DNA of 64,000 bases from assembly GCA_963676395.1 (NCBI GenBank), contig OY781066.1, positions 1,312,001 to 1,376,000 on the forward strand, given 5' to 3'. Position numbers: made by a program. Shown here piece by piece: positions 18,001 through 27,000 of the stretch. Numbering within the stretch: the stretch's first letter is position 1; every line of letters begins with the position of its first letter. The stretch comes from a bacterium. GTDB taxonomy: Bacteria > Fidelibacterota > Fidelibacteria > Fidelibacterales > Fidelibacteraceae.

Positions 18001-21000
18001 TACCCTGGATGTATGCAAGCCTGATCCTGCTGTGTGGGAACTCGTAAAAGAAAAAATGTCTTTACCGCAAGATCCTCAAGGATTTATGGTTGGAGACTCA
18101 GTGCCTGATCTTGCTTTCGCCAAAGTCACGGGTTTAACAGGCGTTGCTTGTACCTATGGCTTTAATGATCTACCGGTTCTAAAGAAAGAAGGTGCTGATC
18201 ATTTTATTGGGGTACTGTCAGAATTAAAAAATTTGATATAATTAAATAAATTTATATTCTGGTTTCTATTTCGTGGGGGCGAAAATGAAGAAGATATTCT
18301 TGTTTTTACTTATCTCATTTAGTTTTGCTACAGATATTTCTCTAATGTTTTGGAATGTTGAGAATCTTTTTGATCAAATAAATGATCCGATTAAAAAAGA
18401 TGATGATTTTCTTCCCGCTGGAAGCAAGCGTTATACTTGGCGGTCTTTTCGCTTGAAAGTTGAACATCTTGCTGATGTTATAAACAGAGTTAATCCTGAT
18501 TGTTTGGCAATGGTGGAGGTTGAAAATAGATTTGTACTGGATGTTTTATGTAAAGAGTTAAAACATACAGACGATTGGGAAATTATTATTGATGATGGCC
18601 CTGATCTCAGGGGGATAGATCCTGCATTGATCTATAGAAAAGACAAGTTCATTTATTGTGGGCATTGCTATTATCCGGTGTATTTTCCTGAGCGAGATTA
18701 TCATAGTCGATCCATTATGCGCGTTGATCTTTGTGAAAAACAAAGTAGTGATACACTCTGTGTTTTTATTAATCACTGGCCTTCCAGAAGAGGAGGCAAA
18801 CAGCGCTCTGATCCATACCGAGAGTATGCCTCAGAGATTATGCTAGATGCTTTAAATGCAACACTTAACGATCATTCAAATTATGCGATAGTCATAACAG
18901 GTGATTTTAACGATGATAGGTTTGATTCATGTTTGAAAGCTCTAGAAAGTGATCCCTTAATATCTTACTTGAATAAAAAAATGCCTAACAAAATCAAAGG
19001 CACCTACTATCATCAAGGAGAGTGGATTCATTTTGATCATTTTTTAACAGCGAATTTTGCGAATAGTCATTTAAATATATCAAGTGCTGAAATCTTTGCT
19101 CCACACTGGATAAGAGAAAAGCCGGGGCAGGGGCCATTACGTTTTTATAAAGGCATCAAGACTGCGGGAGGTTATTCGGACCATTATCCGATCATTCTAA
19201 CAATAGCGATTAAAAATCATGGTTTTAATCGCCATATAAGCAGATAAATTCGGAAATAAATGGGTTCATTGTAATAATAAGAAAAACAACAAGTCGTCCC
19301 GAGTTTTAGCTTTGGGAGATATATTGGCTATTAATCTCATGCCAGTAATGTTGAGTATATTAGATGTTGGAAAATTTATCTAAAAAACATCTCTTCAAAA
19401 CATGAAAACAGTTGAATAAATCCCTTATGAATGCTAAATTTCTCAGCATTAACGGGGTGCTGATGAAAAGCATAGTATTAGCGACACATAACAGAGACAA
19501 GATAAGAGAATTTAAAAGTAAATTAGGCTCTTCTATTGAGCTTAAAACTCTTGAAGATTATCCCGATTTACCGGATGTGATTGAGGACGGTGATACGCTA
19601 GAATATAATGCTTTTAAAAAAGCTCGAGAGATTCATGAATATACCGGTTTGCCGACAGTGGCTGATGACACCGGTTTAGAGGTGGATGCATTAAATGGAG
19701 CCCCTGGCGTATATTCTTCCCGATTTGCAGGTGAAGATGTAACATATCAAGATAATGTCTTGAAGTTATTAAAAGAATTAAAAGGCATTAAAACGGAACA
19801 TCGTAGCGCGAGATTCCGTACAAAAATCGCCTTTGTTGATACTAATGAATCCTGGTGCGTAGAAGGTTCTGTAGAAGGACGCATTCTTGAAGAACAAAGG
19901 GGCGAAGATGGATTTGGATATGATCCGGTATTCTATTATGAACAACTGGGTAAAACCTTTTCCGAACTCGATTTAAAAGCAAAGAATAAGATAAGCCATA
20001 GAGCTAAGGCTATCGAGGCCTTTATTGGTAAAATGAAAGAACTTCAACATATTTAAAACTGAGGTGTTGCCCGGACCAACTTGTTAAAGAATTGATGTTT
20101 GAATGAAATTGAGGCAGATATTAAAACAGCGAAACTGAAGCCGCGTATTATTCTTGGTCTGGTCACGATCATTATCGCTTCTCTGATATATGGAGAAAGC
20201 GAAACATATTCTACCCGTTTTACCTACGAGTTCCATATTCCCGGATTAATCAATACCTTCATGCCAAAACCTACCGGTTTTTCAAGAGCTTATCATCAAC
20301 CTATGGCTCCCTTGTCCGTAAATTTTCCCTCTTGGTTTAAGGCCGTGAAGATTGAACATAATACTGCAGATTCAGGACGTGTTTTGGTGGTGTCGGAGAA
20401 CTTGGGAAAAGATTATTTACAAGCACCACGTTATATTCCATTTGAAGATTATTTTGTTTTTAAAAAAAGCTATAATCTTGATAATCTCTGGTATAACAGT
20501 GTTGCCATGACCGATTCGACCTACTTTGAAAAATTAAAAGAAAAGAACTCAAATGGTAATTCTTCTCTTGAGATCATTGGAGCGGATATCGCCGGACAGA
20601 GAGTCGCTTTGAGAATTCGGGGGCAGATCTCTATTACAGGTAAATACAATCAACAAAACAACTCTATTGTTTCTGCCAATATGTCTAATGAGCAAAAGAA
20701 TTTCTTATTAGATCAAACGCAACAGTTTACGATAGAAGGAACGATCGGGGATAGGGTTACTATTTCTATTGATGAAGATTCAGAACGTGATTTTCAGTTT
20801 GAAAATGCTATCAAGATTAAATATACAGGCAAAGAAGATGAAATCATTCAAAGCGCAAATTTTGGAAATATTGGTTTATCTCTTCCCGGAACTCAGTATG
20901 TGACGGGTTCATCTTCATCAACGGGTCTTTTTGGTGGAAAAGCTGTGATGAAATTTGGCCCCGTGGATGTTACAGCCATTGCATCATATGAAAAGAAGGA

Positions 21001-24000: not shown

Positions 24001-27000
24001 TACCGGTGAATATACGGGAAAGATTTTTCGTGTTGTGGGAGATCCGACTTTATCAAGAATTGAAAAAATGCAAATTGGTGTGATCAATGTCTCCGATGAG
24101 ATATATGAAGGAGATATCTGGGTGGACGAATTGCGTGTGGTTTCTTCGAATAATGATCCCGGTATGGCTATGCGTGGAAATTTTGATTTTCTGTTGGGAA
24201 ATTTTGTTAAATTCAATATGAATGCAAGTAAAAAAGATGCTGATTTTCATCAGGTTAACCAGCAAATGTCTACCGGTACGAAAACTTCTGAGGAGTATAA
24301 CATGACCATGACCATGAGATTGCACGAGCTTTTCCCTCATTCATGGCGAATTACCATGCCTATTACACTTCATCAAAGAAAAACTAAAGGGACACCGAAG
24401 TATTTTCCCGGTTCTGATATTTTATTGGATGATAACCCACCTGATTCATTGATCTCTACATTAAAGAGTCAGTCATTAAGAACCTCGTTTGCGCGAAGTT
24501 CAAATTCAAATGATCCTTTTGTGGCGAAGTATCTTATTAATCCAATAAAAGTAAGTGCAACACTTTCAAAGACCAAAACAACAGATCTTGAAACTAAAGA
24601 TAAGGAAGAATCAAAATTTACTTCAATTTTTAATTATGATGTATCTATACCTGAGGGCGAAGGCATTTCTTATCTTGCTTGGATACCCTTCCTGGGTGAC
24701 GAGGCCAAAGATCAAAAATTCTATTGGAAGCCTAGCTCCTTTAAATGGAAAATGTCGGTAACACAGGATGAAAAAGAATGGATAACTCGATCTACCTTGG
24801 ATACCAATAATACATATTCTTTTTATATGAGCAAGGAGATGTCATTTGCATATAAGCCATTTACTTCGATGAGTTTTACTTATAGCAGGAGCTCAAAATC
24901 TGATCTTGAAGATTATCGAGATAATATTTCCGATTTATTTTCTGAAATATCCTATGACAGCTTGATGAACGGAGTCAATGTCGGAGCCGTTACAAGCATG
25001 AATGAAGCTGTTAATTTTAATTATTCTCCGACACTTACAAAATGGTTAAGACCTAATTTCAAATATTCTTCAAAGTACAGATATAGCTTCAGAAAAGAAC
25101 AATTGTCTGCAAATATTGGAGTTAGCCGTGAAATATCGGGTAACGTCTCGTTGACATTGAAGACTATTTTGGAAAGTATTGAAAAAAGTCAAAAGAAGCG
25201 AAAGGCGAATCGTCTACAAAGATCTATGGCTGAGCCCAATTCTAAATTTGACAAAGAAGTACAGCGCGGTGCTGATCCTGATCCAAGTTCGGCACGAGCA
25301 AAAACTTCAGCAAGCAAAAGAAGGTCACAACCCTTGAATATATCTACTTTATTGGGCCGAGTAAGTCCAATAAAATTCTCCTTCTCAAATAATCTTGTTA
25401 AAGGTAATAGCGGTGTTACCGGCAGTGATATGAGTAAGATATATAAAGATGTGGTTTACAAATATCGATACGGTTTTGTTGATTACTATACATTACCGAC
25501 TCAATCTTTTGATACTAGTATTGTTAACCCTATGACAAATGTTCTTAAAGAAAGTTATAGTATTAGCACAGGACTTCAGTTGACAAAAACATTAAAGATT
25601 CGCTCTATTTCATATAAGCAAAATACTTCAACAGGAAGAGATTACACCTATAAGACTAAATCAAACGAATTTTTTGATGAGCCCACTCATATTTTAGTTT
25701 GGGGTGATACCCTGGAATTATCGCCCTATGATTCTTCGGCAAGCCGAAACTATATTCCAATGGGGGAATCTGGAAAAGAGGGTTTCGTTGCTCCGGATTA
25801 TTCATTGGAGTGGTCAATTACCCCCAGCCAAATTTCATGGTTGAAAAACCGTGTTGATTTTATTCGAAAGATATCTTTCTCACATAAATTATCAAGTAAA
25901 GAAACGATACGTTATCAACAAAAAACCGATAAGTTTCCCTATTACATGGAAGTTGCATCGGCATCATATACATTGAATTTTTCACCGTTGATCAAGGTTG
26001 GATTTACATTTAAGAATAAAATGACCGCAAATTTCTCTTTTAATAAATCAATTAAATATGATCACCGGGGTGACTCTGAACTGGATTATTTAAATACAAG
26101 TATTACTAAAAATAATCAAGACAATATAACTTTCAATATGAGCTATAGTTACAATAAGGGTATTAGTATTCCGACACCTTTCTTAAAGAATATGGAAGTG
26201 CTGAACCTAGATAATGATATGACTTTCACTTTACAGGGTAAATATGGTTTTAGTAAGAAAGTGATTAAAGAATTCAATTCTATGGAGTTCTCGTCCCCCA
26301 AGGATCATCGTATTAATTGGGAAATTGAACCAAAATTAAGATACAGTTTCAGTAAAAATATTGATGGTACTTTGTTTTTTAAGTATGGGCAAAGGATTAA
26401 TCTGAATCAACAAACCGAAGATGGCGATACCGCTTTGGACGATTATAAAGATTTTGGTTTGACTGTGACGATTAAAATTAGAGGATAATATGAAAAAAGC
26501 AGGTATACTTTGCTTGGCTTTATTATCTCTGCTTGTTGCAGGTAAACCTGCTTTTGATTCATATAAAGCTTTTTCATATTTAGAAAAACAAGTGAAAATT
26601 GGGCCTCGATTTCCCGGTAGTGAAGGGCAAATAATATGTCGTGATTGGCTTATTGATCTATGCCGTGAACACGCCGATACTGTTATCATTCAAGAATTTC
26701 AGGCATACCGACCAGACAATAAAACCTATGTTAAAGCTTATAATGTGATTGCTCGCTTTGCTCCTGCAAAACAACAACGGGTAATGCTTAGCACACATTG
26801 GGATACACGTCCCATATCGGATATGGACAGGTTTCATTATTCCACACCTGTTCCGGGGGCAAACGATGGAGCCAGTGGTACGGCAGTTTTGCTTGAATTG
26901 CTGAGACATGTCCGGAAGCTTAGTATGCAAAAGGGGGTTGATGTTGTTTTTTGGGATGCGGAAGATATGGGAATATCAGGAAATGGAGCATATTTTTGTC

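Follow-up and report, generated by a model that had tools for sequence, protein, structure and literature searches.

The motor of type IX secretion systems (T9SS) is essential for secretion in the systems that have been studied. PMC12421860 counts it among the components of the machinery, and PMC8754138 presents PorW of Porphyromonas as what connects the PorK/N ring to Sov. The TXSScan/MacSyFinder definition of the T9SS, as given by Abby et al. 2016 (PMC4793230), uses GldK, L, M, N, SprA, SprE, SprT, PorU, PorV and PorQ; under this definition that source reports the T9SS only from Bacteroidetes, in 60 of 97 genomes, and from none elsewhere. T9SS-type tails were proposed in a proteome study to be removed in Fibrobacter succinogenes, because the peptides of the mature proteins never overlapped the tail (PMC6851124). 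The initial annotation of the locus described here had found no published statement on a T9SS lacking the motor genes. This was not quite right, since a single sentence in PMC11705866 assigns PorV, SprA and Plug “but no other T9SS protein” to the Ignavibacteria Melioribacter and Ignavibacterium. The part of that paper that deals with them gives neither phylum-wide counts nor a mechanism and is silent on Fidelibacterota.

Here, we describe a sprA locus from the genome of a marine-group bacterium of the phylum Fidelibacterota, which consists of one contig (C1) of 2,335,625 bp and is 95.3% complete. Coordinates refer to the window, i.e., the whole stretch of 64,000 nucleotides that was analysed, unless they are preceded by C1. 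We consider it probable that this SprA is part of a core-only type 9 system and that genes for the PorK/L/M/N (GldK/L/M/N) motor and ring are genuinely missing from the genome.

The sprA Operon

The sprA/sov gene, encoding the T9SS outer-membrane translocon, occupies positions 20099–26488 on the forward strand. Its product is 2129 aa long, with a TTG start and a signal-like N-terminus. It matched the TIGR04189 SprA/Sov model with 706.1 bits (cut-off 200) and the Pfam SprA_N family (PF14349) with 134 bits, while residues 420–1445 aligned with the solved SprA from F. johnsoniae (6h3i/6h3j; E 1e-67). By sequence, the product is thus a true SprA/Sov translocon, as the initial annotation had proposed.

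Upstream of sprA lies a gene for an rdgB/Ham1 NTP pyrophosphatase (19412–20056, forward strand; NF011397 232 bits, TIGR00042 176 bits), whose association with sprA is one of position. Downstream, a gene of the M28-fold glutaminyl cyclase type (26490–27389, forward strand; 299 aa; PF04389 103 bits) begins a single nucleotide beyond the stop codon of sprA. The junction, read directly, is TAA-T-ATG, and the gene is translationally coupled to sprA. The best solved relatives of its product are glutamine cyclotransferases, namely 6qro (E 1.4e-49, covering residues 19–293 of 299), 6qql and 7cje. This full-length similarity to the type II (animal-like, M28-fold) bacterial glutaminyl cyclases makes glutaminyl cyclase the predicted activity.

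The gene order proved to be conserved within the phylum. Among 20 sampled loci, rdgB was found upstream of sprA in all 20 and the cyclase-type gene after it in 19, so that the order rdgB-sprA-glutaminyl cyclase was kept in 19 of 20, despite the SprA proteins being only ≈30% identical between loci. Both neighbors also flank sprA in the same order in a relative with a 0.97-Mb genome (G071), and a prmA-like gene co-occurs with the operon in 8 of the 20 loci. The conserved rdgB-sprA-glutaminyl cyclase operon is new here.

A PorU-Like Gene String

The window contains a further string of genes on the forward strand. The first encodes a second, PorU-like C25 peptidase of 1605 aa (6727–11544; PF01364 207 bits) with its own type-A C-terminal domain (CTD; TIGR04183 32 bits). 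It scored 210 bits with the PorU model NF033707 (cut-off 420) and 127 bits with the PorU2 N-terminal model (cut-off 450). The end of this gene is overlapped by the gene for a weak PorV/PorQ-like barrel of 350 aa (11535–12587), which reached 38.9 bits with NF033709 (cut-off 90), 33.5 bits with PorQ and 33.2 bits with PorV2 (cut-off 325), and had no match in a Pfam search. The “PorU2/PorV2” families of NCBIfam, a putative second type IX sorting system (NF052324, NF052325), are the next-best matches of this pair (6727–12587), which is nevertheless not a member, because it falls far short of the cut-offs (127 versus 450 and 33 versus 325). We found no paper on NF052324 or NF052325, and the names are those of the NCBIfam library.

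The third gene (12584–13375) encodes a 263-aa protein of a family without a name. No match was found for it in NCBIfam or Pfam, and the nearest Atlas clusters, with a score of 0.97, either lack a name or are labelled “putative fibronectin type III”; their members are from Fidelibacterota, Calditrichota and Ignavibacteriota. Its possible assignment to an FN3-like family is a lead only. The last gene (13389–13862) encodes an SLBB-domain protein of 157 aa (PF10531 36 bits) that weakly resembles a polysaccharide export protein in NCBIfam.

Other T9SS Components and Their Retention in the Phylum

A six-frame search of the genome with TIGR04183 gave 77 type-A CTD tails over the cut-off. The large set of tails reported in the initial annotation was thus borne out, though not its figure of 74. 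A crude hydropathy test identified a signal-like N-terminus in 71 of 76 tail-bearing ORFs. The true PorU sortase, already noted in that annotation, is located at C1:1960796–1964686, where NF033707 matched C1:1961363–1964677 with 613.1 bits (cut-off 420). With the PorV/PorQ family model, which is less strict than the PorV equivalog model, seven ORFs were over the cut-off (141–198 bits, plus one at 90 bits) and three more were weaker; there are multiple PorV/PorQ-like barrels, as previously suggested, but the count of eight did not hold.

The other components were less distinct. The PorP/SprF model TIGR03519 gave at best 25.7 bits (cut-off 90.55), and one 216-aa barrel of the generic OMP_b-brl_2 kind was found (44 bits), a match that lacks specificity for PorT/SprT. 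A 694-aa TPR lipoprotein (C1:531461–533545) matched the PorW/SprE model NF052312 with 47.8 bits, compared to a cut-off of 250, a score that TPR repeats alone can reach. Similar proteins in six other motor-less genomes scored 63–107 bits, with colinear N- and C-terminal matches in four of the six, all likewise below 250, whereas two Bacteroidota scored 600–770 bits. This weak candidate for a PorW/SprE-like lipoprotein is new here. As this sub-threshold candidate suggests, the ring-coupling module may not be lost in its entirety.

SprA was found in 149 of 151 genomes in our phylum sample, including all 95 of high quality. It was also kept in all seven genomes of 0.8–1.1 Mb, in which only 2–6 tails were detected and none of which had a PorU at E ≤ 1e-15. 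The 77 tails, the PorU at 613 bits, the seven PorV-family ORFs, the retention of SprA in small genomes and the preserved operon order all suggest active use of the system.

We considered the possibility that SprA is a repurposed or relic barrel, serving, e.g., in envelope biogenesis, while the tails take another route. The ≈1 Mb genomes retain a SprA of 2084 aa for very few detectable tails and without PorU, which could mean a housekeeping role beyond export, and sprA is transcribed together with genes of a housekeeping type (rdgB, the cyclase and, in some loci, the prmA-like gene). However, tails, PorV-family barrels and SprA occur together throughout, and ≈1000 residues of the barrel region can be aligned with the solved translocon. 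We know of no other route that recognizes a type-A tail. We therefore regard repurposing as very improbable.

Search for the Motor and Ring Components

In a six-frame search of the whole genome, GldL (TIGR03513), GldM (TIGR03517) and GldN (TIGR03523) had no match at E ≤ 10. For GldK (TIGR03525; cut-off 350), the best scores, 67.3 and 64.2 bits, came from two FGE-sulfatase ORFs. These were rejected as GldK, being far below the cut-off, matched in the C-terminal half only and surrounded by unrelated genes. Independent HMMs were made from the GldK/L/M/N proteins of the gldKLMN operons of five genomes and run with --max against all 7633 ORFs of at least 50 aa. The best E-values among these ORFs were 0.039 (GldL), 0.91 (GldM) and 0.12 (GldN), and the GldK HMM matched only the same two FGE-sulfatase ORFs. 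The curated and independent models thus agree with the initial annotation, which had reported no detectable homologue of PorL/M/N and a PorK likeness at the FGE-sulfatase level only. In a positive control, which covered the GldM model, TIGR03517 was over the cut-off in five of five Bacteroidota genomes.

The same picture holds for the sampled phylum, as had also been claimed: next to the near-universal SprA, none of the 151 genomes, 95 of them of high quality, gave a GldM match, and GldL was over the cut-off in none of the 151. Weak GldL matches in five of them (18.6–23.8 bits) covered the coiled C-terminal part only.

A motor might have diverged beyond detection by profiles, in which case a pair of inner-membrane proteins resembling GldL/GldM, or some other stator of the 5:2 type, would span the periplasm and power SprA as in Bacteroidota. 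Weak profiles are to be expected for GldL and GldM because their transmembrane parts are short, and the sub-threshold PorW/SprE-like lipoprotein, seen in all seven motor-less genomes searched, could hint at an unseen partner. Against this, neither the curated models nor our filter-free HMMs gave anything better than E 0.039. Four hydropathy scans of the genome, with or without a requirement for two downstream barrels, found no credible adjacent pair of 2-TM and 1-TM proteins of the GldL/GldM type, and none was found in G071; these scans are crude and were made on greedy ORF calls, and it is on them and on the sequence profiles that the absence of the motor rests. An NCBIfam scan of the 95 envelope-type proteins of at least 300 aa in the minimal genome G071 named no GldL/GldM-type component, nor any Plug, PPI, PorE, PorG or PorF. 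Finally, the surroundings of TonB_C genes, inspected at eight loci from five further Fidelibacterota genomes, contained only strings of the ExbBD-TonB or Tol-Pal type, or none. A diverged motor is thus unlikely.

Energization of Transport

In a core-only system, the cargo would cross the inner membrane by Sec, consistent with the signal-like N-termini of most tail-bearing proteins, and would then traverse the outer membrane via the SprA barrel and be received by a carrier of the PorV family. In genomes with a PorU, the tail would be cut off and the cargo anchored.

The genome contains exactly one gene of the MotA/ExbB family (89.6 bits), located in an exbB-exbD-exbD-tonB string. This single set is the only proton-driven motor found, and is new here. 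It could power the translocon, with TonB or its paralogue (C1:1073113–1073748) in contact with SprA, with one of the PorV-family barrels or with the SprE-like lipoprotein. In support of such a drive, one ExbB is kept alongside SprA in all seven genomes of ≈1 Mb, and five of the seven over-cut-off PorV-family genes adjoin very large barrels whose N-termini, judged by eye, resemble TonB-dependent receptors. However, the retention of ExbBD-TonB says nothing specific, because TonB-dependent import needs it anyway. Furthermore, an alignment of 22 SprA N-termini showed no short conserved TonB box-like motif after the signal peptide, no TonB-type gene was found near sprA in any of the 20 sampled loci, and we know of no T9SS that uses TonB. 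We consider this drive improbable.

The initial annotation had stated that secretion must be energized differently or by proteins too diverged to recognize. This was reasonable as a conjecture, but it left out a third option, a core that needs no dedicated trans-envelope motor. If the motor is truly absent, we would put the chances at roughly even that there is no such motor at all and that transport is made one-way through capture by PorV and irreversible processing. On the same premise, it is rather unlikely that the single ExbB-ExbD-ExbD-TonB set drives transport, and less likely still that the driving force is something not yet recognizable; these odds are rough and purely inferential. If the system is core-only, Bacteroidota would have added their motor and ring to an older core of SprA, PorV and tail, or both would have been lost in these lineages.

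Comparison with Other Phyla and Known Systems

SprA without GldM is not peculiar to Fidelibacterota. In the phylum of a Calditrichaeota-labelled MAG, SprA was found in 59 of 61 genomes and GldM in 0 of 61, and GldM was likewise found in 0 of 61 genomes in the phylum of a KSB1-labelled MAG. Of five SprA-bearing genomes with other labels, one had GldM, the sole carrier being a “Chlorobiota” MAG; GldM was not found in one Ignavibacteria-labelled MAG with SprA. We tentatively suggest that SprA, PorV-family carriers and the C-terminal tail may form an old, self-sufficient and motor-free outer-membrane export core common to Fidelibacterota, Calditrichota, KSB1, Ignavibacteria and others, which the sprA-glutaminyl cyclase operon would link genetically to the making of N-terminal pyroglutamate, although we would not favor this proposal over its negation. 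If it were true, GldK/L/M/N would be a later add-on of the Bacteroidota, perhaps for gliding and high-throughput release, and passage through the largest known single-chain barrel would have no intrinsic need for the proton gradient.

With the canonical T9SS of Bacteroidota (PorK/L/M/N-PorW-Sov-PorV-PorU in Porphyromonas gingivalis and GldK/L/M/N-SprE-SprA in Flavobacterium johnsoniae), the present genome shares SprA/Sov, type-A CTDs, PorV-family carriers and PorU, as well as a glutaminyl cyclase like those with solved structures from oral Bacteroidota. It differs in the lack of PorL/GldL, PorM/GldM and PorN/GldN, in a PorK/GldK likeness at the FGE-sulfatase level, and in the sub-threshold scores for PorP/SprF and PorW/SprE. 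The cyclase gene, joined to the sprA operon here, heads a separate operon of three genes in P. gingivalis, as described in PMC10653852. The TXSScan/MacSyFinder definition, as given in PMC4793230, draws on the same component families as were considered here, but the present system would fail that definition because it lacks the clustered gldKLMN genes. With the set reported in one sentence of PMC11705866 for Melioribacter and Ignavibacterium, it has in common SprA and PorV without the other T9SS proteins, but the Fidelibacterota genome described here also has a full-score PorU, 77 cargo tails and a weak candidate for an SprE-like protein.

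SprA and the Motor-Ring Genes

The single open frame at window positions 20099-26488 (+ strand) is, judged by its sequence, a genuine sprA/sov translocon gene. It runs for 2129 codons from a TTG start and encodes a protein with a signal-like N-terminus. The product scores 706.1 bits against the curated model TIGR04189 (cut-off 200) and 134 bits against Pfam SprA_N, and its residues 420-1445 align with the solved SprA of Flavobacterium johnsoniae (6h3i, 6h3j) at E 1e-67.

Current models of type IX secretion systems (T9SS) treat the PorLM/GldLM proton motor and the PorKN ring as the heart of the apparatus. 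A six-frame search of the genome holding the window (G000; single contig C1, 2,335,625 bp, marker-gene completeness 95.3%) with curated models gave no match to GldM, GldL or GldN at E≤10. The GldK model, which has a cut-off of 350 bits, matched only two ORFs, at 67.3 and 64.2 bits and in their C-terminal FGE-sulfatase half. A diverged gldLMN set adjoining these two genes was rejected, as they are surrounded by a GIY-YIG gene, sigma and anti-sigma genes and glycosyltransferases. We also built our own HMMs from the gldK, L, M and N genes of five genomes, one of them a ‘Chlorobiota’ MAG and the other four Bacteroidota, and searched them, with all filters off, against all 7633 ORFs of at least 50 aa in G000. 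The L, M and N HMMs reached E values of only 0.039, 0.91 and 0.12 at best, and the matches of the GldK HMM were limited to the same two FGE-sulfatase ORFs. As a positive control, the curated GldM model was above cut-off in all five Bacteroidota genomes found via SprA loci. In one genome reached this way, a Sporocytophaga MAG (G154, via locus L070), GldM occurs twice, each time as two adjoining pieces, with a TGA inside one match; gene splitting or faulty assembly may explain this. Thus, both the SprA/Sov assignment of the initial annotation and its claim that GldL, GldM and GldN are undetectable, with GldK at FGE-sulfatase level only, are borne out.

Other T9SS Components

The same genome has 77 matches above cut-off to the type-A C-terminal sorting domain (the “tail”), a PorU sortase, which scores 613 bits against a cut-off of 420, and seven ORFs above cut-off for the PorV/PorQ family, along with three weaker ones. 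PorP/SprF reached just 25.7 bits against a cut-off of 90.55. A second, PorU-like C25 peptidase, which bears its own tail, lies in the window at 6727-11544; the genes downstream of it encode a weak PorV-like barrel, an FN3-like protein of 263 aa and an SLBB protein. Of the seven PorV-family genes above cut-off, five stand in strings that also include a very large barrel (900-1100 aa) and one or two large proteins with tails (C1:1286906-1302769, 2126522-2135599, 609692-626320, 517431-527177 and 2088847-2101901). The N-terminus of these large barrels resembles that of a TonB-dependent receptor, as judged by eye. A string of the same kind is present in G071, a 0.97-Mb relative from the same phylum.

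A TPR lipoprotein resembling PorW/SprE scored 47.8 bits in G000, and in G071 107.8 bits in the protein scan and 80.6 bits for the best stretch in the six-frame search (cut-off 250). The same model gave 63-107 bits in another phylum member and in MAGs labelled KSB1, Calditrichaeota, Ignavibacteria and Latescibacterota, compared to 600-770 bits in two Bacteroidota. In four of these six relatives the N- and C-terminal matches are colinear. We regard the lipoprotein as a probable distant SprE; TPR repeats can produce such scores on their own. In Sphingobacterium rhinopitheci (G152, via L075), a Bacteroidota control with GldM at 327 bits, PorW/SprE scored only 29.9 bits; this may reflect a diverged SprE or a match missed by the first-look filter.

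Two further gene groups were observed on the minus strand of the window. At 57277-62678, three co-directional genes encode proteins of 294, 1060 and 445 aa. Each of these has a signal-like N-terminus, and none has a Pfam match at E≤1e-4. At 49202-53566, two adjoining paralogues of 754 and 627 aa (53% identity) both terminate in a CBM5/12 chitin-binding module, and one of them has an LVIVD repeat as well.

Neighbours of sprA

An M28-fold gene of glutaminyl cyclase type (window 26490-27389) starts 1 nt past the sprA stop. Its best solved relative is 6qro (E 1.4e-49), and the closest solved relatives are glutamine cyclotransferases of oral Bacteroidota. The order rdgB-sprA-cyclase (window 19412-27389) was found in 19 of 20 phylum loci sampled (L149-L168), with rdgB in all 20. 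The cyclase start also follows sprA in the KSB1-, Calditrichaeota- and Ignavibacteria-labelled MAGs (L011, L024 and L083); among 12 loci with a complete sprA 3′ end, this was the case in eight, the sole Bacteroidia locus not being one of them.

We counted how often Gln follows a small residue close to where signal-like N-termini end, using a window 50 residues further on as a control; the count is crude and does not employ a cleavage-site predictor. The motif was found in 19% of cases in G000 (control 10%), 28% in G071 (8%) and 31% of tail-bearing proteins (8%).

After sprA and the cyclase, sometimes beyond a prmA-like gene, a homologue of the lipoprotein g1653 was present in 14 of 20 other genomes (L149-L168). 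A choice-of-anchor X motif is all that was found in it, and it was therefore rejected as a membrane part of a motor; it is a candidate accessory part. In G000, g1653 itself is no longer beside sprA but lies outside the window (C1:1783041-1787754). Its neighbours there are a tail-bearing propeller protein with weak likeness to PorZ, a PorQ-like barrel, a further barrel and a lipoprotein, the whole group lying downstream of an LptD-sized gene.

Distribution in the Phylum and Beyond

Fidelibacterota are a globally abundant, marine phylum. In an evenly drawn sample of 151 of its genomes, 95 of them of high quality, GldM was found in none of the 151 (and thus in none of the 95), and GldL was above cut-off in none. 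Weak GldL matches in five of the 151, to ORFs of 555-1175 aa, were treated as noise, since none extended beyond the coiled C-terminal part of the model. Of the 151 genomes, 149 had SprA, as did all 95 of high quality.

GldM was also sought in five SprA-bearing genomes under other labels, and the ‘Chlorobiota’ MAG was the one case in which it was present. GldM was found in none of 61 genomes from the phylum of the Calditrichaeota-labelled MAG, 59 of which had SprA, and in none of 61 from the phylum of the KSB1-labelled MAG, where the count covered GldM only. The motor-less state therefore appears to be the rule in several phyla of the FCB group rather than a quirk of G000. The initial annotation had reported the same absence for the sampled phylum, which these counts confirm and widen.

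Streamlined Genomes

Seven genomes of a single genus (G024, G035, G043, G071, G079, G087 and G143) measure only 0.8-1.1 Mb at 95-99% completeness. All seven have kept SprA (about 2080 aa), along with one ExbB each and merely 2-6 sorting-domain matches per genome. PorU was not found in any of them at E≤1e-15 with the model that did find the PorU of G000. G071 (969,550 bp) was examined whole. Its sprA neighbours are the same as in the window, including the rdgB-sprA-cyclase order, and the genome also encodes a PorV-family barrel (217 bits) and the SprE-like protein. None of the 95 envelope-type proteins of at least 300 aa that were scanned in it was named as K, L, M or N. In these genomes the system occurs naturally in a minimal form that is available for study, consisting of SprA, a PorV-family barrel, a few cargo proteins and the cyclase, without the sortase.

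Search for Another Energiser

The MotA/ExbB family has one gene in G000, part of an exbB-exbD-exbD-tonB string. A second stator was rejected, as phmmer searches with ExbB, ExbD and TonB against all ORFs of G000 returned no further ExbB or ExbD. They did return three further TonB_C proteins, namely a 211-aa paralogue, a BlaR-type protein of 651 aa adjoining a BlaI-like gene, and a 470-aa lipoprotein; there are no secretion genes beside them. SprA was dropped as a TonB-box protein, because 22 aligned N-termini share no conserved motif past the signal peptide. The locus of the single MotA/ExbB-family gene (C1:1179234-1181381) differs from L169 (G010:C6) in another member of the phylum, which has a seemingly full Tol-Pal string of TolQ-, TonB_C/TolA-, TolB-, Pal- and YbgF-like proteins, assigned from sizes, topology and weak matches. 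With only one such gene, G000 is apparently without TolQ.

Four hydropathy scans of G000 (strict and relaxed, with and without two downstream barrels) found no credible pair of neighbouring GldL-like (two TM) and GldM-like (one TM) proteins; the output was just an NfeD/SPFH pair, signal peptides and similar. A hydropathy scan of G071 found no such pair either. Adjoining paralogous barrels, considered as a flag for a GldLM-like cassette, yielded one pair (C1:1049722-1051497), with no membrane-protein genes upstream. No such cassette was seen at eight TonB_C loci in five other phylum genomes, which had strings of ExbBD-TonB or Tol-Pal type, or none.

Given the crude ORF calls and hydropathy tests, these negatives carry little weight, yet they are consistent. 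We consider a cryptic motor unlikely. The motor and ring are probably truly absent from a system that is in use. If so, coupling to ExbBD-TonB seems somewhat less likely than a ratchet that runs without a motor. The initial annotation had proposed that secretion is energised differently or by proteins too diverged to recognise. This interpretation is partly supported: the underlying absence held up with the curated models and our own HMMs, and the part on energy is a reasonable proposal.

Cargo would be exported by Sec, its N-terminus optionally cyclised, and then pass through SprA to be handed over to a PorV-family barrel. Where PorU is present, the tail would be cut away and the cargo anchored.

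Comparison with Known Systems

Across the phylum, the pore, the carriers and as many as 77 proteins of cargo occur with no recognisable motor or ring; the 2100-residue pore is kept even in streamlined genomes of 1 Mb. Either the pore can work without that motor or an unrecognised energiser exists, and both would reframe the mechanism of the T9SS. For annotation, it follows that a “T9SS” call made from SprA or tail domains alone implies neither gliding nor a rotary motor.

In the TXSScan study, a complete T9SS was found in Bacteroidetes only (PMC4793230). For Melioribacter and Ignavibacterium, a single sentence elsewhere lists PorV, SprA and Plug but none of the other T9SS proteins (PMC11705866), and a Fibrobacter proteome study proposes that tails are removed (PMC6851124). 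Fidelibacter multiformis is the only cultured member of the phylum (PMC11652737); its description calls it non-motile and never uses the word “secretion”. In full-text searches of the main text of open papers, we found no report of a motor-less T9SS in Fidelibacterota/Marinimicrobia, and no paper linking sprA to the cyclase or describing a sprA-cyclase operon.

The sprA-cyclase operon forms a genetic tie between the translocon and the “Q-rule”, which two papers describe as a Bacteroidetes trait (PMC5837995, PMC10653852). The Gln enrichment, obtained by a crude method, suggests a partial “Q-rule” beyond Bacteroidota, although at 19-31% it is well below the 77% reported for P. gingivalis. The gene order differs as well: in P. 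gingivalis the cyclase stands at the head of a different operon (PMC10653852), whereas in the window it directly follows sprA.
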